Below are positions 4,160 to 40,459 of a DNA stretch of 64,000 nt, piece by piece. Every line of letters starts with the position of its first letter. The first letter of the stretch is position 1. The position numbers and the translations under genes were made by a program. Below the pieces are notes generated by a model, which saw only the letters and a program-made list of their open reading frames with translations, ran no database searches and was not told where the DNA came from. Origin of the DNA: Patescibacteria group bacterium (lineage in GTDB: Bacteria; Patescibacteriota; Patescibacteriia; Patescibacteriales; UBA12465). The DNA lies in NCBI GenBank assembly GCA_041658665.1, contig JBAZZR010000001.1:64576-128575 (forward strand). The letters are read 5' to 3'.

Positions 4160-4234
4160 TGGACCCCAAGGGATTCGAACCCTTGACCCCCTGCTTGCAA
4201 AGCAGGTGCTCTAACCAGACTGAGCTAGGGGCCC
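4160..4234 (-). tRNA. tRNA-Ala (anticodon UGC)
   Basis: The reverse complement folds as a cloverleaf. Acceptor GGGCCCC/GGGGTCC includes G3:U70. Anticodon loop is TTTGCAA. T-arm is AAGGG-TTCGAAT-CCCTT. No CCA is encoded. Confidence 0.95.
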
Positions 4235-15957: not shown

Positions 15958-18504
15958 ATGTTTAGGGAAAATATCCAAAACGAGAAAGAACAAATGGCCG
16001 CTCGGACAAAAGAGGTTGAAGCGGATTTTCATGAGCAAAAAATGTCCCAGTTTTTAGAGAATCATGAGGTTATCTCTTATAAAGATGGAGATTGTGTTAT
16101 TGATGTGGAAAAGATAAAGAATTTTTCTGTTTCAAAAACTATTGATAAGCAATATTACTTTGATGGTGTAATACATTATATAACCAATGCTGATATTTTT
16201 GAATTTTTAAAAGATAAACAAGGCCGGGCTCAGACGGACGAAGAAACATCAGATAAATTTTTATTGTCGGACGAGGGGTCTTCTTTACCAAGGGCGGGCT
16301 TGGACGCTCGGGCAATAAGCGTTCAAGAGAATAAAAACCAAACAAGCCCGATAGTTGCTTTGCCTAAAAATATTTATGATGCTAAAAATGGCGATTTGGA
16401 TGAAGGGATATTAAAACCTTGGGAAGTAACCACTCATCCTGATTTTCGTCATAAGACAAAATTAACTGATGGCGCCGAAGCTTCTCTGGCGGATTTATTT
16501 TATCTTAATAAAATTAAAGAGGCCAAAATCCACCGTGATCAGACTGGTGCTTTGGTCTATTGGGATGGAGCAGATAATCAGTTTAAAAAATTTGTAGCCA
16601 CTCAGTCTGATAAAATTTTTCAGCGGCGGATAGTCTTCTCCGAGCAAGGTAAAAATTATTCTTTTCATGATAATACTAGCATGTTTATCAATAAATTTTT
16701 GCCGTTAGTTAAATCATTGAATCTTTTTGAGGCCGAAGATTTTCGCCGTGTTTCCGGGTCATCGACGGCTCAAACTTTATTAGCCCATGAAAGAAAAATT
16801 TTTGGTAGCCCTTATATTAATATTTCTAATAGCGCTAAGCATGCTCGTTATTATATTGGCCGGGATAAAATAGTCGGTACGGATCAAAAGATTAATGAGA
16901 ATATGAGAGCAGTAGAACTAGATCAAAATTTAGTCGGTGTCACTGAAGATTCTTTTGGTCGTCGTAAATTATTATATACTTTTCAGAAATTTAATGATCA
17001 AGAATATAAGAACTATGGCCTAGAAGATAAGGAAAGTTCTTATTGTCTGGTTTCGGGCAAAGAAATGAAAAAGCGGGTGAATGAATATCAAATATCAGAC
17101 TATTTGCCCCAACATAAAGACGAAAGCGCCGCTAATTATGCTAATCGTTTAGCTAATTTAAACGATGTTAAATTAACGAGCCGGACTTTTCGAGATCTGG
17201 CCTTGAAAGCGGAGACGCCGATTAATGATTTATCTTGGGCCGAGCAGCTTTTAATTACTAATTATGCTTTTGAAAGTAAAGATGAAAATAAATTATTAAA
17301 TTTTGTTAAGCAGTATAAAGTTGATGGCTTGCGATCGCTTATTACCGCCGAAGTAGATCAGAGGGCGGGAGACAAAATTATGGCTATTAGTGAAAAATTA
17401 CCATTTGCTCAAGCGAAGACGGTTTTTGAAAAGATTAGTGGCCTTAATCAGATGGCTACCCGTAAAGCAGATGAACTGGTCGACGTTTTTTTTGACGCCG
17501 AACGCGGCCAGGCGCCGCTCATGATGAGTGTTCATAAGGCGTTACTCAAAAAGACAAGCGAAATTGTCACGGCTTTTTATGAACACCTGAAGAAGGATGA
17601 TAATATTGAAGATTTATTGAGTGAGCTGGAGAAATGTAAGGCTGAAATGATTATGCTGGCTTCGGTCTTGAAAGAAGGAAAACTACAAGGAGAAAAAATT
17701 GATTTAGAAACGATTAGAGATTTAAATTTGGAAATAAAAGATTATGGTCAAGATATTGCCGAGCCGGATAAGAAGAATATTTTAAAGATTGCCCAGGCCA
17801 ATTGGAAAAATTTTGGTAATGACAAGATGGCCCAGGTAGTTTATGACGGTTTAGTCGAGACTTTGAACCAGGCTCAAGAGCAAAAGGCTTATATTTTAAA
17901 ATATAAAGATGAGGTGATCGGTTTTGTCCGTTTTGAGCGGACTAGCCACGGTACGGTTTATGCTGGGTCTCTTAATGTTTCCAAGGATTTGCGAGGTTTA
18001 TCGATTGGCAATGAGTTAATGGAGAAAGCGCTCCTGAAAGAAGGGGAACTTAATATTTTGGAAGCCTCAGCTTCTATTAAAATTCCGGCGGGCTGTAATT
18101 ATATTGAGAAAATTGGTTTTATCGCTGATGGCCTAATCGTAGATTATCACGGCACAGGTGAAAATTTACTGTCCATTAAATTAGATAAGGAAAAGAATAA
18201 AGAGTATAGTTTGCGTAATGAAGGAAAAGATAAGTTGCTTAGTTCAAGGGAATTGCAGGAAGCCATTAATGATTATAAACAATTGGATAATTTAATGGGC
18301 CGACCATATATTGTTTTACGTTTTGACTTGAATACGGAAATGGCCGAATATCAAGCAGCTTTGAGCCGACTTTTGCCCCAGGTTGATGATAATTTAAAAC
18401 CGCTAGAAGATAAGCAGGGGAAATATACTCTGACTCGTTATTTTTATGATAAGAATGAAGATCCGAAAGGCAATATTCGTTATTTGGTTTTTGAAAAAAA
18501 TTAA
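15958..18504 (+). CDS. large orphan protein (848 aa) with C-terminal GNAT acetyltransferase-like domain
   Basis: The GNAT-like segment VIGFVRFERTSHGTVYAGSLNVSKDLRGLSIGNELMEKAL lies near residues 650-700. No motif is recognised in the first ~600 aa. No TM or signal peptide. Confidence 0.65.
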   Translation: MFRENIQNEKEQMAARTKEVEADFHEQKMSQFLENHEVISYKDGDCVIDVEKIKNFSVSKTIDKQYYFDGVIHYITNADIFEFLKDKQGRAQTDEETSDKFLLSDEGSSLPRAGLDARAISVQENKNQTSPIVALPKNIYDAKNGDLDEGILKPWEVTTHPDFRHKTKLTDGAEASLADLFYLNKIKEAKIHRDQTGALVYWDGADNQFKKFVATQSDKIFQRRIVFSEQGKNYSFHDNTSMFINKFLPLVKSLNLFEAEDFRRVSGSSTAQTLLAHERKIFGSPYINISNSAKHARYYIGRDKIVGTDQKINENMRAVELDQNLVGVTEDSFGRRKLLYTFQKFNDQEYKNYGLEDKESSYCLVSGKEMKKRVNEYQISDYLPQHKDESAANYANRLANLNDVKLTSRTFRDLALKAETPINDLSWAEQLLITNYAFESKDENKLLNFVKQYKVDGLRSLITAEVDQRAGDKIMAISEKLPFAQAKTVFEKISGLNQMATRKADELVDVFFDAERGQAPLMMSVHKALLKKTSEIVTAFYEHLKKDDNIEDLLSELEKCKAEMIMLASVLKEGKLQGEKIDLETIRDLNLEIKDYGQDIAEPDKKNILKIAQANWKNFGNDKMAQVVYDGLVETLNQAQEQKAYILKYKDEVIGFVRFERTSHGTVYAGSLNVSKDLRGLSIGNELMEKALLKEGELNILEASASIKIPAGCNYIEKIGFIADGLIVDYHGTGENLLSIKLDKEKNKEYSLRNEGKDKLLSSRELQEAINDYKQLDNLMGRPYIVLRFDLNTEMAEYQAALSRLLPQVDDNLKPLEDKQGKYTLTRYFYDKNEDPKGNIRYLVFEKN

Positions 18505-19328
18505 TTAGTGTCACTTATGTTTCCTTCTTTAGCTCTTGTTTCGGCCGGAGCTTTTGTTTGTTGAGCTTTAATAGTGCTGGCCAAATTTTCCCAAATATAT
18601 TCGAATAGTAGTTTATTCATTTGATAAATATTTTTATCTTCGATGACAATAGCCATTTTGTTATCTGACGAAACCACTTGATATGAGACTTTATTATCAT
18701 AGATTTGGACACCGCTACTAAAGTTATAGAATTCCGGAGCGAGAAAGCGAAATTCGGTAATTAAACTGTTAAAATTTTTGAGAAATTGGCGATTGAAAGA
18801 AGTATCAGCGATGATAATCTTTTTTTTAATGGCAGTCTTTTCGCGTTTCTTAGAATAGGCGTCGTTAATATCTTTGATATTTTTTTCTACCGCTTCAATA
18901 TCGGCAAAAGTATAAATGGTCGTTCGACTAGCCAAAGTGTCATTGAGACTTTTTTCAATACCCTCCTCTCCTTCATAAAATTTTACTCCCGGCTTATTGC
19001 TAATTAAACTATAAGCCGAAACTAGATCGGGCAGGGCACTAATAAATTCTTTTTTGTGTTTAATGGCGTCTTTTTCTTTTTGATCGGCAATCGTTTCGAG
19101 GCCGGATGGGTGTTCAGCCGAAAAGATAGTAATACCTTTAACTTCCTCGGTTTTAGATACTAGATTAAGCTTAATTAATTCATCCAAGCCTTTATAAGCG
19201 ACCCCCCGGGGTCTTTTTATTTTTTTGGCGATATTACTGGCTTTATCCGGACCCTGGTTTAGGAGACAGTCCAGGATTTCAGCCTGAACCTTGGATAAAC
19301 CGAGATTATAGAGGGTTTTTTCAAACAT
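18501..19328 (-). CDS. TrmB-family transcriptional regulator
   Basis: N-terminal wHTH LGLSKVQAEILDCLLNQGPDKASNIAKKIKRPRGVAYKGLDELIKLNLV. Its 3' end overlaps the convergent 848-aa gene by 4 nt. Confidence 0.7.
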   Translation of the reverse strand: MFEKTLYNLGLSKVQAEILDCLLNQGPDKASNIAKKIKRPRGVAYKGLDELIKLNLVSKTEEVKGITIFSAEHPSGLETIADQKEKDAIKHKKEFISALPDLVSAYSLISNKPGVKFYEGEEGIEKSLNDTLASRTTIYTFADIEAVEKNIKDINDAYSKKREKTAIKKKIIIADTSFNRQFLKNFNSLITEFRFLAPEFYNFSSGVQIYDNKVSYQVVSSDNKMAIVIEDKNIYQMNKLLFEYIWENLASTIKAQQTKAPAETRAKEGNISDTN

Positions 19329-19446: not shown

Positions 19447-19475
19447 ATTATAGCGCATATTGTAACTAGTGTCAA
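19447..19475 (-). promoter_or_regulatory. perfect-consensus sigma70 promoter for the TrmB-like gene
   Basis: The minus strand reads TTGACA (19475-19470), a 17-nt spacer and TATAAT (19452-19447). Confidence 0.7.
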
Positions 19476-19570: not shown

Positions 19571-19599
19571 TTGACAATAATCTAAAACAATGCTAAACT
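19571..19599 (+). promoter_or_regulatory. sigma70 promoter driving the island RNA
   Basis: TTGACA (19571-19576), a 17-nt spacer and TAAACT (19594-19599). Predicted start near 19606. Confidence 0.65.
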
Positions 19600-19605
19600 T
19601 AAGGT

Positions 19606-20400
19606 ATCGAAAATGAGAAAGGAAAGAGACGGGCAAAACAAGTACATTACATTCAAATAAAATAATGGAAGGAGAGAGTCATTATTAATCACGATACTAT
19701 TACTTCTATAACAAGGGTACTAGGCGGATTGAGCTTTCTCATTCTATATAGAGACAGATTTTTCCGCCCAGTACCCTTTTTGGTCAAAAAACGGAGCGGA
19801 TAGTCCTGAAGAGGAGAGAGGTTTAGCCGCTGCCTTAGTGCCCACAGCCTAAGGCGGAACTAAATAGTAAGAATGGTTATTAGGAATAGAAATATTAATG
19901 GTTAGCGCCACCCCATGTTGCTAGCCAGAGTTCCCGCCGGGCCATTTAACGAACTCCCCTTCATAACTATCCGCTTCAAGCGGAAACCGAAGCGACTACG
20001 GGATAGTTGCCCCAATTATTTAGGGAATAAATAACAGTTAAACTAATTTGTCAATTTTGGGAGATTAAATGGACACATAAGCTTTAGAAATAAAGTGGAG
20101 AGGGTTCATCTCCTGAGATTAACAAAAGTTTGACAGTTTGCTTCCGGATTAAATCCGGAATCAGGCGCCAAGTGAGTCAGGGCCAAGAAGCGTCGCAAAC
20201 CGCTTCAAGGTCGAGACGATCTTAGTACGGCGTGGCTCAGTTATCCGCCAGCTGGCGGATGAGCAAGCTCCCGGGACAGCACTAACGCCACCGTCTTCTT
20301 ACGAGGAGATCGGCTGAGCCCTAAACCTTGAACAAGCTTAGGCCCAGAAATTTCCTCGGAAAAATATAAGTTTGAGAGGGAAGAGTTCTTTAAATTATTT
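19606..20400 (+). ncRNA. candidate large structured non-coding RNA (~0.8 kb, unclassified)
   Basis: No ORF of 60 aa or more on either strand in the supplied track. Local GC by hand count is 35/60, 38/60 and 30/60 for the lines starting 20161, 20221 and 20281, against an AT-rich background. There are many verified hairpins (19715-19776, 19832-19855, 19973-19993, 20142-20160, 20187-20206, 20243-20260). The 3' boundary is uncertain. Confidence 0.6.
19715..19781 (+). terminator. terminator-like or attenuator hairpin inside the island RNA leader
   Basis: GGGTACTAGGCGGA ... TCCGCCCAGTACCC (14 bp, one mismatch) followed by TTTTT. It could end a ~175-nt sRNA or act as an attenuator. Confidence 0.4.
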
Positions 20401-20650: not shown

Positions 20651-20865
20651 ACTGTAAAAAAAATTTCTAAAAAAAGTTTCTAAAAACGCCGATATGCGGC
20701 ACGATTCCTAAGTTTCCGGCTTACCTCCAAGGTATCAAAGGGCTGTTTAGAAGGAATCAAAAATTTTAAATTAGTTTAGCTTATTCTGATTACAAAAAAT
20801 AAGCAGGCCATCCTACCGGACCGCCGAGGCTATCACTACGCCTGAAGTGTCCACCAAAGTTTAAA

Positions 20866-20943
20866 GAGCAGTGTCGTTCAAACATTGCTCTCCCTCCCGG
20901 GATGTGCGTCTCGGCTGATGAGTCGAAAATGACGAAAGGGAAG
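20866..20943 (+). ncRNA. type III hammerhead ribozyme, copy 1, with a 5'-adjacent hairpin
   Basis: Core: UCCCU-C (C17 at 20896). Stem I is CCGGGA/UCUCGG with loop UGUGCG. CUGAUGA at 20915-20921. Stem II is GUC-GAAAAU-GAC. GAAA at 20934-20937. Stem III is GGGA pairing with UCCC. Predicted cleavage falls between 20896 and 20897. The upstream hairpin is 20866-20890. Confidence 0.85.
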
Positions 20944-20986
20944 AACATTTACAACTAAATAGACAGTAATTTCATTTTTTGACTGA

Positions 20987-21048
20987 TTTATTTTAGTTAT
21001 TATTTTTAAAGTTTTAAAAAAGACTTTAGGGATAATAACTAAAATAAA
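20987..21048 (+). repeat. conserved AT-rich long hairpin (copy 1) between the ribozyme and the downstream start codon
   Basis: Arms TTTATTTTAGTTATTAT / ATAATAACTAAAATAAA form 17 perfect bp. The homologous copy at 24167-24225 carries compensatory changes. Confidence 0.7.
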
Positions 21049-21060
21049 AAGGAATATAAA

Positions 21061-21918
21061 ATGAAAGAAAAATATTATTTAATTAGCGATGATCTTGTTT
21101 TGTCTGAGCAAGAATTCGTTAATAAGTACAAAGTGTCTCGCGCGACTTACTATCGTGCCAAAAAGTCCGGCTATTTCATGCTGGAATATCATAAGAGGGA
21201 GATTGAGATAAATAGTGTTTTTGTTGAAAATAATTTGGCGTTAATATTTGAGTGCGCCAAGATGGCGTCGTATATTGTAGCGAGGAGATACTGGGGTCCT
21301 CTTTATTGGAGAGAAATTCAAAAAAAGTTTGGCATCACAACCGTCGACTTCCGTGATGAGGCGTTTTTGAGAATTGTTGAAAGGAGTGCGCATATTGCTG
21401 AAAAAACAGCTGGTGCTAGCGATAGCTCAAGACGTTGTTATATGCTAAAAGCCGCAAAATACGCGGTGCAGGAGTTTATTTCATTAAAACTATTTCGTTA
21501 TAGTGATAGGAATAGTCGTTTTGACGAAGAAAATAACGAAGAGGATGATAGGAGCGGTAGGATCTTTTCCTATGATCCAACCAATGAAATACATGCGCGC
21601 GTTGACACAATGGGTTCTAGAACTGAAAAAATTATCCGCTTATTAAACGAAAATGAGCGGAAAATATTTTTGGCCATCTGCGCTGGCTGGGATAGGGAGG
21701 AAATAGCGTTTCTAGATAACATAGATAACATTACGTCCACTGAAATATTAGATCGGATTAAAAAAATAATTAAAAAAATCCGGCTATTGTATGGAATTAG
21801 TGAGGGAAGAGTTGATTGGTATCCGCCTAAAACGGATAAAAATCACTCAGAAGAATTGCGTCAACTTCGTAAGAAAGTAGCGCAATATCTAAATGAAAAT
21901 TCTGTTCACTTAGTGTAA
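21061..21918 (+). CDS. divergent sigma-70-like / HTH DNA-binding protein
   Basis: N-terminal HTH (KVSRATYYRAKKSG). The C-terminal segment LNENERKIFLAICAGWDREEIA...ILDRIKKIIKKIR resembles sigma-70 region 4. FRDEAFLRIVERS resembles region 2. No database check was possible. Confidence 0.45.
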   Translation: MKEKYYLISDDLVLSEQEFVNKYKVSRATYYRAKKSGYFMLEYHKREIEINSVFVENNLALIFECAKMASYIVARRYWGPLYWREIQKKFGITTVDFRDEAFLRIVERSAHIAEKTAGASDSSRRCYMLKAAKYAVQEFISLKLFRYSDRNSRFDEENNEEDDRSGRIFSYDPTNEIHARVDTMGSRTEKIIRLLNENERKIFLAICAGWDREEIAFLDNIDNITSTEILDRIKKIIKKIRLLYGISEGRVDWYPPKTDKNHSEELRQLRKKVAQYLNENSVHLV

Positions 21919-22717: not shown

Positions 22718-22800
22718 GCAGATTAGTTTGTTCAACTAATCTGCCTCTTTTCAAGGGCAGTAAAAATTTTAGTGCCCTTGAAATCGGATTCTTTAATAAC
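22718..22800 (+). terminator. double-hairpin terminator-like module, copy A
   Basis: Hairpin 1 is GCAGATTAGT/ACTAATCTGC followed by CTCTTTTC. Hairpin 2 is TCAAGGGCA/TGCCCTTGA with a loop GTAAAAATTTTAG. The homologous module is at 25404-25470. Confidence 0.55.
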
Positions 22801-22827
22801 GTGAGTCAGAAATAATCTTTATTTCAC

Positions 22828-22885
22828 AATATTGGACAGTACTTTGAATATATTTTAATAAATATTTAGAGTACTGCCCAATATT
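22828..22885 (+). promoter_or_regulatory. internal promoter bracketed by 16-nt inverted repeats (candidate operator)
   Basis: TTGAAT (22844-22849), a 17-nt spacer and TAGAGT (22867-22872). It is flanked by AATATTGGACAGTACT (22828-22843) and AGTACTGCCCAATATT (22870-22885), which match at 15 of 16 positions as an inverted repeat. Confidence 0.45.
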
Positions 22886-22971
22886 AGGCAGGGTCAGCCA
22901 ATGTCCAGTCGTAGTCCGTAAAAAAATAATTAGGACCAGACAAATGACAACGGCAAAAACAAGGAGTAGAA

Positions 22972-23550
22972 ATGAGAACTTATTTTTGGAATCGCGGTAG
23001 CTTAATCCCCGGTATATCCGTCACTAAAGATGATAAACTAGGCTTTATAGTTTATCTCGGTGAGGATGGGCGAGGTAGACGTTATGAAAAAGTTGGTCTA
23101 CTGAGAAATAACCCGGCGGAAATTATAGATGGGAAAATTTTTGAAGCTCATCCGGTTAGAATTACCGTTGGTAAAGGTACGGACAAAGAAAGAAATTTTT
23201 TTGTTCTCGCCAAGTCGATCGACAACGCCGATCCCCGTGTTATTGTCCATGTAAATACGGAATGTGTTTACACCCGCGACACTGTAGGTAAATGGACAAT
23301 GAAAGTCGGGGCCCCAGAAACCATAGTTAAGGCCTATGGCGCTCACGGAATTGCTGGCCGGATTGGTAATTGGGATGACGGGTTGATATTAATGAAACCA
23401 GGAGATGTTTTGGAGATTCGCCCGGAAGGTGGTCATAAGGTAGATTCCTACGCGCTATTTTTCGATGCGGAAGGAATCTTAACATCCATGGTTTGGAAAG
23501 ATTACGAAGCTATGCAAGCTATTTCCGGCGGGGAGGTAGATTGGTTATGA
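22972..23550 (+). CDS. orphan protein (192 aa)
   Basis: AAGGAG ribosome-binding site upstream. The stop codon overlaps the next start (ATGA at 23547-23550). Confidence 0.6.
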   Translation: MRTYFWNRGSLIPGISVTKDDKLGFIVYLGEDGRGRRYEKVGLLRNNPAEIIDGKIFEAHPVRITVGKGTDKERNFFVLAKSIDNADPRVIVHVNTECVYTRDTVGKWTMKVGAPETIVKAYGAHGIAGRIGNWDDGLILMKPGDVLEIRPEGGHKVDSYALFFDAEGILTSMVWKDYEAMQAISGGEVDWL

Positions 23551-24008
23551 AAACATTAAAATGTTTTACTCTGTCTGGGAAAGACGTTTCTCCCGTGATT
23601 AAAATGGAAAAAGGAAAAATTTCCTGTTGGGGTGGGCCCGGTCAACCCGACATTCCTTTCGTTTATGCTCTAAATCCTGAAGTAAACGAATATAGTATTG
23701 CTAATATCGGTAAAAAAACTAATCAATTTTTTTTACAAATTGGTGAAGGAGAAGTTGACCAGCATCAAACCCTAGTTTTTGTCCATGAATATTTTAATGG
23801 GTCTGGTGCAAAAAGATGGCCCGGTTTCCACATTGATTGGAATAATGCCGGACAAGTGGAAATTTTGATTCAGACCCAGCGCCACTATGGGAGCGGTTCC
23901 GATACTTGGTCGTTAATCATCGCTCCACACGGCTGGGTAGAAAATATTGCCGCTCAATTTATTGATGAGCGAGATTATCCGAGTCAGATTATTTCCTACA
24001 AATTGTAA
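23547..24008 (+). CDS. orphan protein (153 aa), translationally coupled to the upstream ORF
   Basis: ATG at 23547 preceded by GGAGG at 23532-23536. The ORF-track start at 23493 lies inside the upstream gene and has no ribosome-binding site. Confidence 0.55.
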   Translation: MKTLKCFTLSGKDVSPVIKMEKGKISCWGGPGQPDIPFVYALNPEVNEYSIANIGKKTNQFFLQIGEGEVDQHQTLVFVHEYFNGSGAKRWPGFHIDWNNAGQVEILIQTQRHYGSGSDTWSLIIAPHGWVENIAAQFIDERDYPSQIISYKL

Positions 24009-24060
24009 TTTTAGAGTAGGGTCGGCTGTATAAAATCTGGGGGCACTTAAGTTCAAAATT

Positions 24061-24139
24061 GAGCAGCTTTTGTTCAAAAGCTGCTCTCCCTCCCGAGATG
24101 CGTGTCTCGGCTGATGAGTCCGAAAGGACGAAAGGGAAG
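24061..24139 (+). ncRNA. type III hammerhead ribozyme, copy 2, with a 5'-adjacent hairpin
   Basis: Upstream hairpin GAGCAGCTTTT/AAAAGCTGCTC (24061-24086). UCCCU-C (C17 at 24092). Stem I is CCGAGA/UCUCGG. CUGAUGA at 24111-24117. Stem II is GUCC-GAAA-GGAC. GAAA at 24130-24133. Stem III is GGGA. Predicted cleavage falls between 24092 and 24093. Confidence 0.88.
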
Positions 24140-24166
24140 GACCTTAAAAATTAAATAAGACTATGA

Positions 24167-24225
24167 TTATTTAGTTACTATTTTTGAAGTTTTAAAAAAA
24201 GACTTTAGAGATAGTAACTAAATAA
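24167..24225 (+). repeat. conserved AT-rich long hairpin (copy 2)
   Basis: Arms TTATTTAGTTACTAT / ATAGTAACTAAATAA form 15 perfect bp. The T-to-C change on one arm is matched by an A-to-G change on the other, relative to copy 1. Confidence 0.7.
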
Positions 24226-24274
24226 TAAAAATCAAAAAATCCGCGGTCCCGACGTATTCGGGCAAGGAGAAAAA

Positions 24275-25387
24275 ATGGAACATATCAATAGTTTTGCTCC
24301 CGATGGAAGCATAACAGGATTAACTTACCGCCAAGCTTGTGCGGTAATATTTATCGCTACGGGGAATATGGAATTTCCTCCAAATCCTTTTGATAAGGAA
24401 GATATTAAAAGGATCGGAGGGACTTTTGATGGAAATAACGGTAATTACCCAAATCTTTATCCCGTCGAGGGCGGCGGTATAGAGTATGTTACCATTAGTG
24501 GCCGGAGTATTAAAATTACTCTGGACAATGATGGTCAATGGCGGCTGGACTGTTCCTCATGGTGGAGCAGTTCAAAAATATTTCAAGCGACAATCCTCGA
24601 TGCGCTAGAAGTAATGGCTTCGTACAAACTAGAGGACAACATTCCATTATCATATTTTGATAGGAATGTTAATTTTGAGGAAATTTTCGGACGAGTTTCC
24701 TTGGGAAATTTTGGTCAACCAGAGTTGGACGATCTGGCTTACATCTTATTTGACGGGAAGCTACCTGATGGCTACACCAGATTTCCACTAAAAATATCCT
24801 ATGGGGATATGGACATCGATGCGGACTATGAGTCCGTTTGGTATGGCGGAAAGAATTCTGGTGGTTGGGTCGGCTTTAAGGACTATGCCGATAAGCTAAA
24901 AGAGGGTGAAACAAAAGGGGTTAAATGGGAATTTTGGCAAGTAGGACGCCATTATTTCAACCAGTCTTCATTTAGTCATAATTATGACAGATGTGAAGAC
25001 ACTGGAGATTGGTACCTCTGTATTAATGGTGGTGTAAAAGTTACCGATGCGGAAGTTTCCGATAATCAAGAAGTTGTGAAAATACTTCAATTCGCGGGAA
25101 TTCCGACCAAGAAAAAAGATTTTATGGAGGCGTGGAATTTGGATATAACTGGAGAGTCTATCCCGACGCCATATTCCCAATATTATGGCGGAGAAAATTC
25201 CGGCGGAAACGTCGGCATTTCGATTGAGACCCGCTATGAAGGGCCAGAAGGAAAAGTGATTGAGAGTCGATCATTTAATGAGTCGACCTTTGATCACGAT
25301 GTGGATAAAATACGACCCGCTATCCATATCGTACTTCGTTCTGGTGCGCCCGTGATTGACATGTCGCGTATGTGGGCAGTATTGTAA
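24275..25387 (+). CDS. orphan protein (370 aa) with an internal duplicated motif
   Basis: AAGGAGA ribosome-binding site. Internal repeat YGGKNSGGWVGF...FNQSSFSHNYD versus YGGENSGGNVGI...FNESTFDHDVD. No TM or signal peptide. Confidence 0.6.
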   Translation: MEHINSFAPDGSITGLTYRQACAVIFIATGNMEFPPNPFDKEDIKRIGGTFDGNNGNYPNLYPVEGGGIEYVTISGRSIKITLDNDGQWRLDCSSWWSSSKIFQATILDALEVMASYKLEDNIPLSYFDRNVNFEEIFGRVSLGNFGQPELDDLAYILFDGKLPDGYTRFPLKISYGDMDIDADYESVWYGGKNSGGWVGFKDYADKLKEGETKGVKWEFWQVGRHYFNQSSFSHNYDRCEDTGDWYLCINGGVKVTDAEVSDNQEVVKILQFAGIPTKKKDFMEAWNLDITGESIPTPYSQYYGGENSGGNVGISIETRYEGPEGKVIESRSFNESTFDHDVDKIRPAIHIVLRSGAPVIDMSRMWAVL

Positions 25388-25403: not shown

Positions 25404-25470
25404 GGAGGTTAGTCAACTAACCTCCCCTTTTCCAAGTGCGATAAAATTTTAGCGCTTTTGGAATTCGATT
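25404..25470 (+). terminator. double-hairpin terminator-like module, copy B
   Basis: Hairpin 1 is GGAGGTTAG/CTAACCTCC followed by CCTTTTCC. Hairpin 2 is CCAAGTGCG/CGCTTTTGG with a loop ATAAAATTTTAG. Confidence 0.55.
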
Positions 25471-25476
25471 TTTTAA

Positions 25477-25581
25477 CCGCCTTTGAAGCGTAGAGCGGAA
25501 AAGACAGAGACATTATTAAACTCTCTCTCCTTAATATTGTACTTTCTTTTCACGACGCTCTACACTTGAGGGGCGGTTTTT
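25477..25581 (+). terminator. long imperfect hairpin plus T5 at the right edge of the island
   Basis: CCGCCTTTGAAGCGTAGAGCG (25477-25497) pairs imperfectly with CGCTCTACACTTGAGGGGCGG (25556-25576), followed by TTTTT. Confidence 0.5.
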
Positions 25582-39007: not shown

Positions 39008-40459
39008 ATGTCTTACCTCGAATTAAAAAAATGGCCATTTTTACGGCCAGGACGATTATTCGCCGGCCTTATTTTAGCGTTGCTGATTGTTATTTTTAGT
39101 TGTTTCATTTATTCTTTTGGTTCAGGGAGCCGAGTTACCTATACGCGTCATTATTCCTGGGGTTTAAATTTAATCGGTCGAGCGATGATTAGTGATTTTA
39201 TGCCAGGAGACAATATTTCCCCCTCCTCTTTTTGGTCGGATTTAAGAATAAAAGCTGAGCCGCTCTCTTTTTCCGTTAAGGCGCCTAAAGAATTTCGGCG
39301 GGCTATCGTTAAGGTTAAATATGGCGATTATTTATCGACTGATTTGCCGATAATTAAATTAGGAATTTTACGTCGGAATTCGTCAGATTTCTATGATTTT
39401 AAAGAATTACAAAATAATTTAGTTGATCGTTTGCGTTTTGACTGGAATCGTTTAGAGGATAGCGAAGAACGTTTAGTTTTACAGTCCGCGAAGAATTATT
39501 CTTCTTTAGATACCTTTAATCGGGATTTGCGGGCCAGTACTTTAACGACTTGTTCTCAGCCGTCTGTGGCTTGTTTAGCTACAGTTAATTATCCGCTAAC
39601 TATTAATTATCGTTTGCCTGATTATTTTTCTTTTTCGCCGATTAGCATTAAGCAGTCGCTACGTGGTAGTCATCAATTTTATGTTTATTTAAAAAATGAA
39701 GCTTGGCGTTTCTCTTTTAATTTTGGTCTTTTAGCGGACGATAATTATTCTAATCCTGGTCGGTCGGATATTATTGTTAGTTTAGCTGATGGCGATAAAA
39801 TTATCGCTTCTACTAAGATCTCTAAAGAATCTTGGTCGGCGACGACTTCTAACCAGTCGCTTGTCTTAAGGGGAGCGGGTCTATCCCCTGGTGCCTATCG
39901 AGTAAAAATTGAAGCGGATGATGGAATTATTACTCAAGAGATTCAAAGCTCGTCGCCTAAATTAGCCTTTATTAATCAGCTTAATTTAGTAGCGGCCAGT
40001 AGCACCCGGTTATTTACTGATGTCACGGATTTTTTAGGACAAGCTCGAGACAAGTCGGCGGCGGATATTGAATTTAATCGTCAGAAAACTAATTTAACGG
40101 AAAATTACCAACGAATAAAATTAGGCGTCCGTTCGGATATTAAGACCTTAGAATTACGAGGGAGCGTTTTTTTAGCCGGGCGGGGAAGTTGGTCTTTTAC
40201 GCCGGAGAGTTTTTTTAATCCCGTCATTCCCGAACTATATTCGTCCGAACAAATTAAGGATATTAAATATATTGTCGCTGATTATCAGTCGCCTCTAGGT
40301 GATCAAGACTTAAAGACAGCTCAAGTCGAATTTAATTTAGACGCCGCCCGTTATGAAAATAATCGTTATTACTTTTTATTAGCTATTCCCGGTCTGACTG
40401 ACCAAAACCCGGCTGATTATTTAGAAATTAAAGAAATGGCGGTAACTTTTTTTAATTAA
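39008..40459 (+). CDS. hypothetical membrane-anchored protein (483 aa)
   Basis: N-terminal TM helix LFAGLILALLIVIFSCFIY. The remainder has no recognisable motif. Confidence 0.55.
   Translation: MSYLELKKWPFLRPGRLFAGLILALLIVIFSCFIYSFGSGSRVTYTRHYSWGLNLIGRAMISDFMPGDNISPSSFWSDLRIKAEPLSFSVKAPKEFRRAIVKVKYGDYLSTDLPIIKLGILRRNSSDFYDFKELQNNLVDRLRFDWNRLEDSEERLVLQSAKNYSSLDTFNRDLRASTLTTCSQPSVACLATVNYPLTINYRLPDYFSFSPISIKQSLRGSHQFYVYLKNEAWRFSFNFGLLADDNYSNPGRSDIIVSLADGDKIIASTKISKESWSATTSNQSLVLRGAGLSPGAYRVKIEADDGIITQEIQSSSPKLAFINQLNLVAASSTRLFTDVTDFLGQARDKSAADIEFNRQKTNLTENYQRIKLGVRSDIKTLELRGSVFLAGRGSWSFTPESFFNPVIPELYSSEQIKDIKYIVADYQSPLGDQDLKTAQVEFNLDAARYENNRYYFLLAIPGLTDQNPADYLEIKEMAVTFFN

Follow-up and report, generated by a model that had tools for sequence, protein, structure and literature searches.

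The 64-kb window described here (the whole stretch of DNA that was analyzed, 64,000 nucleotides (nt) of the Patescibacteria contig JBAZZR010000001.1, to which all coordinates refer) carries, between two protein-coding genes, an element that by every criterion testable in sequence is a type III hammerhead ribozyme (24087-24137, plus strand); only the score cut-off of Rfam was failed. It is the second of two such elements in the window and is referred to as copy 2. Upstream lie two genes coding for proteins of 192 and 153 amino acids (aa) (22972-23550 and 23547-24008), which overlap by their start and stop codons (ATGA), and directly downstream follows an open reading frame (ORF) of 370 aa (24275-25387). 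Copy 2 is intergenic and the flanking ORFs are encoded on the same strand as the ribozyme. Its predicted cut site is 84 nt past the stop codon at 24008 and 182 nt ahead of the ATG at 24275, both distances being correct in the initial annotation of this element.

Stem III of copy 2 is formed by UCCCU (24087-24091) and AGGGA (24133-24137). The cleavage-site nucleotide C17 (C24092) follows, with cleavage predicted between 24092 and 24093. Stem I pairs CCGAGA (24093-24098) with UCUCGG (24105-24110) and is closed by loop I, UGCGUG (24099-24104). Next are the core CUGAUGA (24111-24117), which was also found by pattern search, stem II with its GAAA loop (GUCC-GAAA-GGAC, 24118-24129; stem 24118-24121/24126-24129, loop 24122-24125), and the GAA after stem II (24130-24132). 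The core conforms to the hammerhead rule C3 U4 G5 A6 N7 G8 A9 plus G12 A13 A14. In the cleavage triplet, U16.1-A15.1 is U24091-A24133, and N17 is C24092, not G. The topology is that of type III, with stems I and II closed by loops and stem III open to the flanking RNA.

The initial annotation had identified a type III hammerhead, and its stems, core, GAAA loop and cleavage position are all found in the sequence where it had placed them. This identification is supported by all sequence-defined hallmarks, and all three stems covary among relatives that played no part in finding copy 2. The interval originally given (24061-24139) contains the ribozyme, but its first part (24061-24086) is a separate hairpin outside the ribozyme. 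It had also been stated that stem II is one base pair (bp) longer than in copy 1; this is true as read, but stem II of copy 1 can alternatively be drawn with 4 bp (GUCG-AAAA-UGAC, with a closing G.U pair).

Folding of 24055-24145 returned, as minimum free energy structure and as centroid, the hammerhead three-way junction and the separate preceding hairpin (z -4.1). The junction was kept when the entire 282-nt intergenic region was folded (z -5.8). A covariance model (R1) built from 20 viral-contig hammerheads only gives copy 2 a score of 68.6 bits (E 2.2e-16).

Two scans, which kept different parts of the ribozyme fixed, revealed related hammerheads. A scan of genomes with stem III and the core fixed yielded 11 loci, mostly from Patescibacteria, in which stem I varies while its pairing is kept. 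A scan of viral contigs, with only loop I, the core and stem II fixed, yielded 33 loci. Stem I is perfectly paired (6/6 pairs) in all 28 distinct hits of the latter scan, compared to 1.88/6 pairs in a shifted control, and N17 is C in 22 of them, U in three, A in three and G in none. A gap-free alignment of 28 members has double changes at 12 of 15 pairs and a covariation score of 0.786 (0.199 for shuffles), with 100% of the cells paired (about 40% with slid partners); its rows had been pre-selected for pairing, and the stem I test of the viral scan carries more weight. Among relatives from the lineage of the window, 98% of the cells are paired and 10 of 15 pairs covary, in an alignment that was fitted to the model. 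The hammerhead core is under strict purifying selection across the relatives.

One of the relatives (L042) is a 322-nt viroid-like record from IMG/VR, which matches copy 2 except for stems I and III and a single base of loop I (loops UGCGUA/GAAA compared to UGCGUG/GAAA); loop I is conserved in the family as UGYGYR. By its size, we presume that this record represents the lucerne transient streak virus satellite. A core CCGAUGA (U4 to C) was seen at L063:2007-2057, L063:4670-4720, L058:6310-6360, L064:3306-3356, L064:3748-3798 and twice in L073, in all cases on the minus strand. The stems of these hammerheads are otherwise perfect and covary, and CCGAUGA possibly represents a naturally occurring variant of the core whose activity is altered.

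Copy 1 (20891-20941, plus strand) is recognized by the viral-only model R1 with 63.0 bits (E 7.8e-15). It is separated from copy 2 by 3196 nt on the same strand and has an upstream hairpin (20866-20890), a box 1 with the sequence GUUUAAA (20859-20865) and a long downstream hairpin (20987-21048), all on the plus strand. Stem III is identical (UCCCU/AGGGA) in both copies from the window and in all three copies from locus L004. The loose pattern CTGATGA...GAAA has five matches in the window, and the surrounding stems are present only at 20915 (copy 1) and 24111 (copy 2); the matches at 2937, 9070 and 15606 lack stems and are not hammerheads. A third match to R1 (40382-40440; 18 bits) has the core CUGAUUA, is located within a coding region and was rejected. 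Beyond copies 1 and 2, no credible hammerhead was thus found in the 64-kb window with the R1 model and the pattern search.

Stem III of copy 2 is abutted, with a spacing of 0 nt, by the hairpin at 24061-24086 (plus strand; GAGCAGCUUUU-GUUC-AAAAGCUGCUC). It has an 11-bp stem and its loop region contains GUUCAAA (box 2). A further GUUCAAA (box 1; 24051-24057, plus strand) is single-stranded, is positioned 3 nt upstream of the hairpin and recurs in related loci; GUUCA-type boxes are found 2-7 nt upstream of the hairpin in their hammerhead modules. The differences between the hairpins of copies 1 and 2 are compensatory. In 39 of 46 distinct members from phage contigs and Patescibacteria, stem III is preceded at 0-2 nt by the end of a stable hairpin (at most -8 kcal/mol), as compared to only 32 of 262 control windows (12%). 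For the hammerheads from the lineage of the window, the abutting hairpin was found in 18 of 21. All of these hairpin statistics are based on per-sequence folding, as MAFFT misaligned the hairpin stems between loci. The median distance in the 46-member family is 34 nt to the upstream same-strand stop codon and 38 nt to the downstream start codon. The arrangement in phage contigs is compact, consisting of stop codon, hairpin, hammerhead, ribosome-binding site and start codon.

In several phage contigs (L015, L022, L028, L034, L037, L043), two or three modules of hairpin plus hammerhead are found no more than a few kb apart, and a UUCAAA hairpin loop like that from Patescibacteria occurs in phage contigs L016, L022, L024 and L038. 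An intrinsic terminator was considered for 24061-24086 and was rejected: instead of a U tract, the 5' strand of stem III (UCCCUC) comes next, and the hairpin was not called by the terminator scan. Neither the GUUCAA boxes nor the leader described below were encountered in those parts of the bacterial-hammerhead literature that were covered (PMC3088659, PMC6155905, PMC6765202), and neither was the abutting hairpin, which was looked for only in the main text of PMC3088659.

Between copy 2 and the next start codon is a long, A+U-rich hairpin with 28 bp (24166-24226, plus strand). Long near-perfect hairpins of this type (up to 28-29 bp, mostly A+U) precede the next gene in each of the intergenic regions (20987-21048, 24166-24226, 22826-22887 and 25475-25579, all on the plus strand); they may serve as sites for RNase III or as elements at the DNA level. 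Between copies 1 and 2, these hairpins show compensatory differences (U-A to C-G). Of 21 related hammerheads, 8 are followed within 220 nt by an uninterrupted stem of at least 14 bp, compared to 0 of 110 control windows. The long hairpin is followed by a shared motif of the 5' untranslated region (24241-24274, plus strand), with a small hairpin (CCCGACGUAUUCGGG, 24248-24262) and the ribosome-binding site AAGGAG (24264-24269) ahead of the ATG at 24275. This motif also precedes other genes of L004, and it is 94% identical to the stretch following a 282-aa gene in L072.

At two other junctions, a terminator-like module is found instead of a hammerhead. The first (22718-22796, plus strand) has a hairpin (22718-22744) followed by CUCUUUUC and was called by the terminator scan; the second (25404-25476, plus strand) is a repeat of it. 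The order within the module is a hairpin with a GUUCAA loop, a U-rich tract (CUCUUUUC), and a second hairpin in the place which otherwise is occupied by the ribozyme. The module recurs in L050, L060, L063, L066 and L068. We considered whether its distal part (22745-22796 and 25426-25476) might represent a second ribozyme class. There is no match to a known RNA family, and a terminator-like hairpin with a U tract and a second hairpin fits best.

The array of genes and junction modules is divergent from a gene for a TrmB-like winged-helix regulator (18501-19328, minus strand; Pfam PF01978). Promoter-like sites were detected by a scan for both directions, at 19447-19475 (minus strand) and at 19571-19599 (plus strand; TTGACA-17-TAAACT). 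The latter is followed by a conserved non-coding leader of about 750-770 nt (19607-20370, plus strand). A metagenome scan with the TrmB-like protein retrieved 24 loci. Hammerheads, numbering one to three (possibly four) per locus, are present in 11 of these; without exception they lie between ORFs at a distance of 1-6 kb from the regulator and on the strand divergent from it. Protein look-ups added L072 and L073, with two and four copies, which brings the number of distinct TrmB-linked loci with hammerheads to 13. The presence of hammerheads was judged in relatives with enough upstream sequence. Hammerheads are absent near the TrmB homologs of L069 (in about 2.6 kb of upstream sequence), L071, L075 and L076; the last three, which are distant homologs in other contexts, have neither hammerheads nor the leader, and they provide no further variants of the leader loop described below.

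While regulator, promoter and leader are conserved, the genes carried by the array in the window (its cargo) have no counterpart in the loci from the TrmB scan. L066, L053, L058, L060, L052 and L064 share a cargo of their own, with proteins of about 131 aa and about 107 aa, a P-loop protein of about 404 aa (weak Cas_csx3), a bpMoxR AAA+ ATPase, and a vWA protein. As judged from the sequences, this set resembles conflict or defense systems.

A block consisting of copy 1 and the gene for a 285-aa protein (20876-21898) is 83% identical to a block from L072, which is located on the reverse strand at +4643 to +5669 from the regulator start. It carries the sixth gene after the leader in L072 but the first one in the window, and the homology starts inside the hairpin loop. 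The motif 24211-24274 is found after that block in L072, with 94% identity. The sequence relationship to L072 is evidence of cassette shuffling at repeated junction modules. The fact that a hammerhead together with its downstream gene occupies another rank in L072 indicates that the hammerhead modules mark the boundaries of exchangeable cassettes.

The leader shows 68-90% nucleotide sequence identity in nearly all TrmB-linked loci, while identity of the regulator is no more than 46-81%. No Rfam family matches the leader at E<=1, and based on its conservation and covarying helices we consider it a candidate for an unnamed structured RNA of this Patescibacteria lineage. Within the block 20301-20362, compensatory changes are found at 7 of 17 helix pairs. 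The apical loop of 9 nt (CUUGAACAA) contains UUGAAC (20328-20333) and is invariant except for one locus.

In the window, a 75-aa ORF is located between the leader and copy 1, and ORFs of 285 and 250 aa are located between copy 1 and the module at 22718-22796; the 285-aa protein is a near-orphan. The gene for FtsK lies past the second terminator-like module. The neighbors are ordinary chromosomal genes, which code for a GNAT-domain protein, the TrmB-like regulator, FtsK and an ECF sigma factor. The regulator has no relative with a solved structure by sequence and has weak Csa3/CasR-type matches. A prophage or genomic island was rejected, as PHROG matches were weak (best E 0.0047, none at E<=0.001) and neither an integrase nor a compositional shift was found. 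No matches to defense families were found among the cargo proteins of the window.

The initial annotation had considered the 370-aa protein an orphan, and indeed no homolog except itself is found among 5.8 billion proteins; there is also no match in Pfam, PHROG, PADLOC or NCBIfam. The database entry is a Patescibacteria hypothetical protein, whose gene is located on a contig of 821,845 bp. The protein has an internal repeat (24842-24877 and 25184-25219, plus strand; YGGKNSGGWVGF and YGGENSGGNVGI), which suggests a duplicated domain. The 192-aa and 153-aa proteins had been described as a coupled orphan pair. Their coupling is borne out by the ATGA overlap, but the term orphan does not apply to the 192-aa protein, for which 283 homologs were found (E<=0.001). 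In many cases the homologous part is the N-terminal domain of a protein with 400-950 aa that contains this domain two or three times. Even among these long relatives, no Pfam family was assigned. The 192-aa and 153-aa proteins are unrelated to each other.

We consider it likely that 24087-24137 encodes an active type III hammerhead and that hairpin plus hammerhead act as a punctuation mark for processing and as an insulator between cassettes. That the ribozyme would split a polycistronic transcript, as initially proposed, is the natural reading given its intergenic position, the flanking ORFs on the same strand and the promoter-like site at 19571-19599. Upon transcription of the plus strand, the three-way junction would fold and a contact between loop I (UGCGUG) and loop II (GAAA), of the kind that hammerheads require for fast cleavage at physiological Mg2+, would dock stems I and II. 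The RNA would then cut itself between C24092 and C24093. The mRNA for the 192-aa and 153-aa proteins would end with the 11-bp hairpin plus UCCCUC and a 2',3'-cyclic phosphate, which resembles a terminator-type end and would be expected to resist 3' exonucleases. Stem III, having 5 bp only, would melt and free the downstream mRNA. This would start with a 5'-OH at the hairpins of stems I and II, followed by its own leader (long hairpin, small hairpin, AAGGAG) and by the 370-aa ORF. Each cassette would in this way gain transcript ends of its own without a halt of transcription. Because the hairpin abuts stem III right after the upstream stop codon, a protected 3' end is predicted for the upstream product and a defined 5' end for the downstream product. 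Cleavage in vivo, the stabilizing effects and the insulating role of the module are all inferred.

Several points weigh against this interpretation. Both the cleavage of copy 2 and its transcription are predicted from sequence, and the stabilizing and insulating roles lean on the analogy to terminator hairpins and to engineered ribozyme insulators. Because the terminator-like module at 22718-22796 lies between copies 1 and 2, one transcript need not span both; transcription to copy 2 would need either read-through of this module or a promoter that has not been mapped. The U4C core of some relatives implies that not every member of the family need be fast. Finally, RF00008, when run in sensitive mode, scores copy 2 with only 18.9 bits (E 0.21; the cut-off is 48.5) and with a wrong register of stem III.

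The last point can be put into perspective. RF00008 was run on members of the family from 10 loci (L013, L016, L030, L036, L021, L023, L004, L002, L063, L042), and the cut-off was reached only by L042 (48.6 vs. 48.5 bits). It was reached neither by the four loci from phage contigs nor by the two of viroid size (L021 and L023) nor by the three from the Patescibacteria lineage. Because other members of the family fail as well, we attribute the miss to the model and its threshold, not to the RNA. Those hammerheads from phages and Patescibacteria which were tested escape the type III model of Rfam and stay unannotated in routine pipelines. At gathering thresholds, the only Rfam match in the window is a tRNA (4160-4234, minus strand; 70 bits). 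Sensitive Rfam scans of the four intergenic regions returned no ribozyme family except for the sub-threshold hammerhead; matches to microRNAs and snoRNAs are artefacts of the long A+U hairpins, and a match to RAGATH-7 is noise (13 bits vs. a cut-off of 112).

A further mechanism might come on top of the cleavage by the hammerhead rather than replace it. The leader loop CUUGAACAA might pair, as a kissing loop, with the GUUCAA hairpin loop or with box 1 at each junction, and the leader, or a leader fragment released by copy 1, might tune folding or cleavage of the ribozyme or the stability of the 3' end. Within the 64-kb window, GUUCAA is positioned in a hairpin loop only at 20876, 22730 and 24072, which belong to the hairpins of the two hammerheads and to the terminator-like module, and its complement is in a loop only at 20328-20333 in the leader. 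Both the leader loop and the loop of the junction hairpin are conserved while their stems covary. Duplexes of 6-9 bp are predicted (-6.4 and -8.7 kcal/mol). When >1000 windows of the leader are ranked by complementarity, its loop comes out among the top few in 8 of 14 loci. Pairing is retained via G.U in the box variants GUUUAA and GUUCGA, and the sole variant of the leader loop (UUGAAU, in L068) coincides with a box 1 having the sequence AUUCAA. This is, however, a single compensatory event, and box 2 of L068 as well as the variants from L047 and L073 pair less well. Complementarity of two conserved motifs over 6 nt might be coincidental, and a DNA-binding protein would fit equally well, since in double-stranded DNA both motifs amount to one word that is read in either orientation. 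The tetraloops of the phage relatives are unrelated, which would make any such contact lineage-specific and not needed for hammerhead function. We regard such a contact as possible but doubtful. The wider picture that would emerge from it is equally tentative: a hitherto undescribed RNA-organized cassette system of this Patescibacteria lineage in which regulator and promoter would drive the leader, followed by a variable array, with the UUGAAC loop of the leader base-pairing with the junction hairpins. Every junction would consist of a GUUCAA hairpin combined either with a hammerhead (cut and read on) or with the U-rich terminator-like module (stop), the cargo being orphans in the window and MoxR-type ATPase, vWA and Csx3-like genes in the relatives. 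One RNA hub would in this way be coupled to the processing or stability of all cassettes. More generally, a hairpin followed by a type III hammerhead may be a widespread device of phages and bacteria for producing a terminator-like 3' end without terminating. If so, the question of why prokaryotes carry hammerheads would be answered in concrete terms.

The modules might alternatively act at the level of DNA, with hairpins and GTTCAAA boxes serving as recombination or protein-binding sites, similar to attC, and the hammerhead being a passenger. The cargo varies in close relatives while regulator, promoter and leader are constant, every cassette is flanked by repeated intergenic modules, and the block of copy 1 and the 285-aa gene is relocated in L072 with homology from inside the hairpin loop; all of this would be expected for such sites. 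However, there is no integrase or other recombinase in the locus, and homologous recombination between the repeats could suffice for shuffling. Purifying selection on the hammerhead core is unexpected for a passenger, and the covariation of the hairpin stems is as compatible with RNA as with DNA. We consider a purely DNA-level role unlikely. An integron-like array in particular was rejected: the divergent gene codes for a TrmB-like winged-helix protein and not for a tyrosine recombinase, and the box GTTCAAA does not fit the integron core GTTRRRY. It is very improbable that the 3196-nt fragment between the copies is converted to a circular RNA by ends which re-form a hammerhead and become ligated, as in retrozymes and viroid-like RNAs. 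The identity of stem III in both copies from the window and in all three copies from L004 would permit this, and 5'-OH and 2',3'-cyclic phosphate ends suit RtcB-type ligation or self-ligation. Nevertheless, stem III differs among hammerheads from the same locus in L063, L049 and L058, and the terminator-like module is located between the copies. For clustered bacterial hammerheads, circular or spliced products were sought by Perreault et al., who reported none (PMC3088659). There is hardly any chance that copy 2 is an inactive relic or a chance resemblance without a role. A score under the Rfam cut-off and an activity deduced from sequence would agree with that, but an E-value of 2e-16 is obtained with an independent model, the core is perfect, the intergenic position is conserved, and the stems are compensated between the copies and across 20+ relatives. 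If the interpretation of hairpin plus hammerhead as a processing and insulating module holds, the module would be a natural insulator between frequently exchanged genes. The fused hairpin, the context of a cassette array and the possible contact to the leader make the function of a bacterial hammerhead more directly testable at this locus, which also points to a conserved unnamed leader RNA and to a second junction module, both of possible independent interest.

In 2011, Perreault et al. (PMC3088659) described clusters of hammerheads that flank non-conserved ORFs of bacteria and prophages. Such hammerheads are reported to cleave polycistronic RNAs of about 2 kb in vitro (PMC3088659), to cut multi-gene transcripts as a proposed role (PMC3088659, PMC6765202) and, by proposal, to confer differing stabilities on the processed products (PMC6765202); the role of the hundreds of hammerheads from bacteria and phages is still called an open question (PMC6155905, PMC6765202). 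The locus resembles these clusters (PMC3088659, PMC6155905, PMC6765202) in having same-strand hammerheads a few kb apart which flank single genes or short blocks of unannotated ORFs. As in the clusters from 2011, the hammerheads are on the same strand as the genes that they flank, are clustered within a few kb, and have cargo which varies between loci. In contrast to the prophage setting of the latter, there are no phage genes or integrase nearby, and the chromosomal position beside a TrmB-like regulator is conserved. Judged by its sequence, copy 2 is a further clustered prokaryotic hammerhead, of an already known kind, which here is found outside a prophage.

The type III hammerheads from plant virusoids, on which RF00008 is based, share with copy 2 the topology, the core, stem II with its GAAA loop and the UGYGYR loop I. 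They belong to a rolling-circle RNA replicon, whereas copy 2 is located on a bacterial DNA chromosome between protein-coding genes, is preceded by a hairpin and scores under the Rfam cut-off. The engineered insulator RiboJ has a hammerhead from a satellite RNA followed by a hairpin, both placed before a ribosome-binding site. The same order of hammerhead, hairpin and ribosome-binding site is found at copy 2, where by analogy removal of variable upstream RNA and a constant 5' end would be expected. Unlike RiboJ, the arrangement is natural, and its hairpin, of 28 bp, is far longer and is shared by only 8 of 21 relatives; the resemblance is one of working, not of membership. Intercistronic processing with stabilizing 3' hairpins is also familiar from the RNase III sites of phage T7 and from REP and terminator hairpins. 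In analogy to these, a polycistronic RNA would be cut between genes and the upstream product would be left with a stable stem-loop at its end. In contrast to the T7 sites, the cut would here be made by the RNA itself, with the long perfect hairpin downstream being a possible substrate of RNase III.

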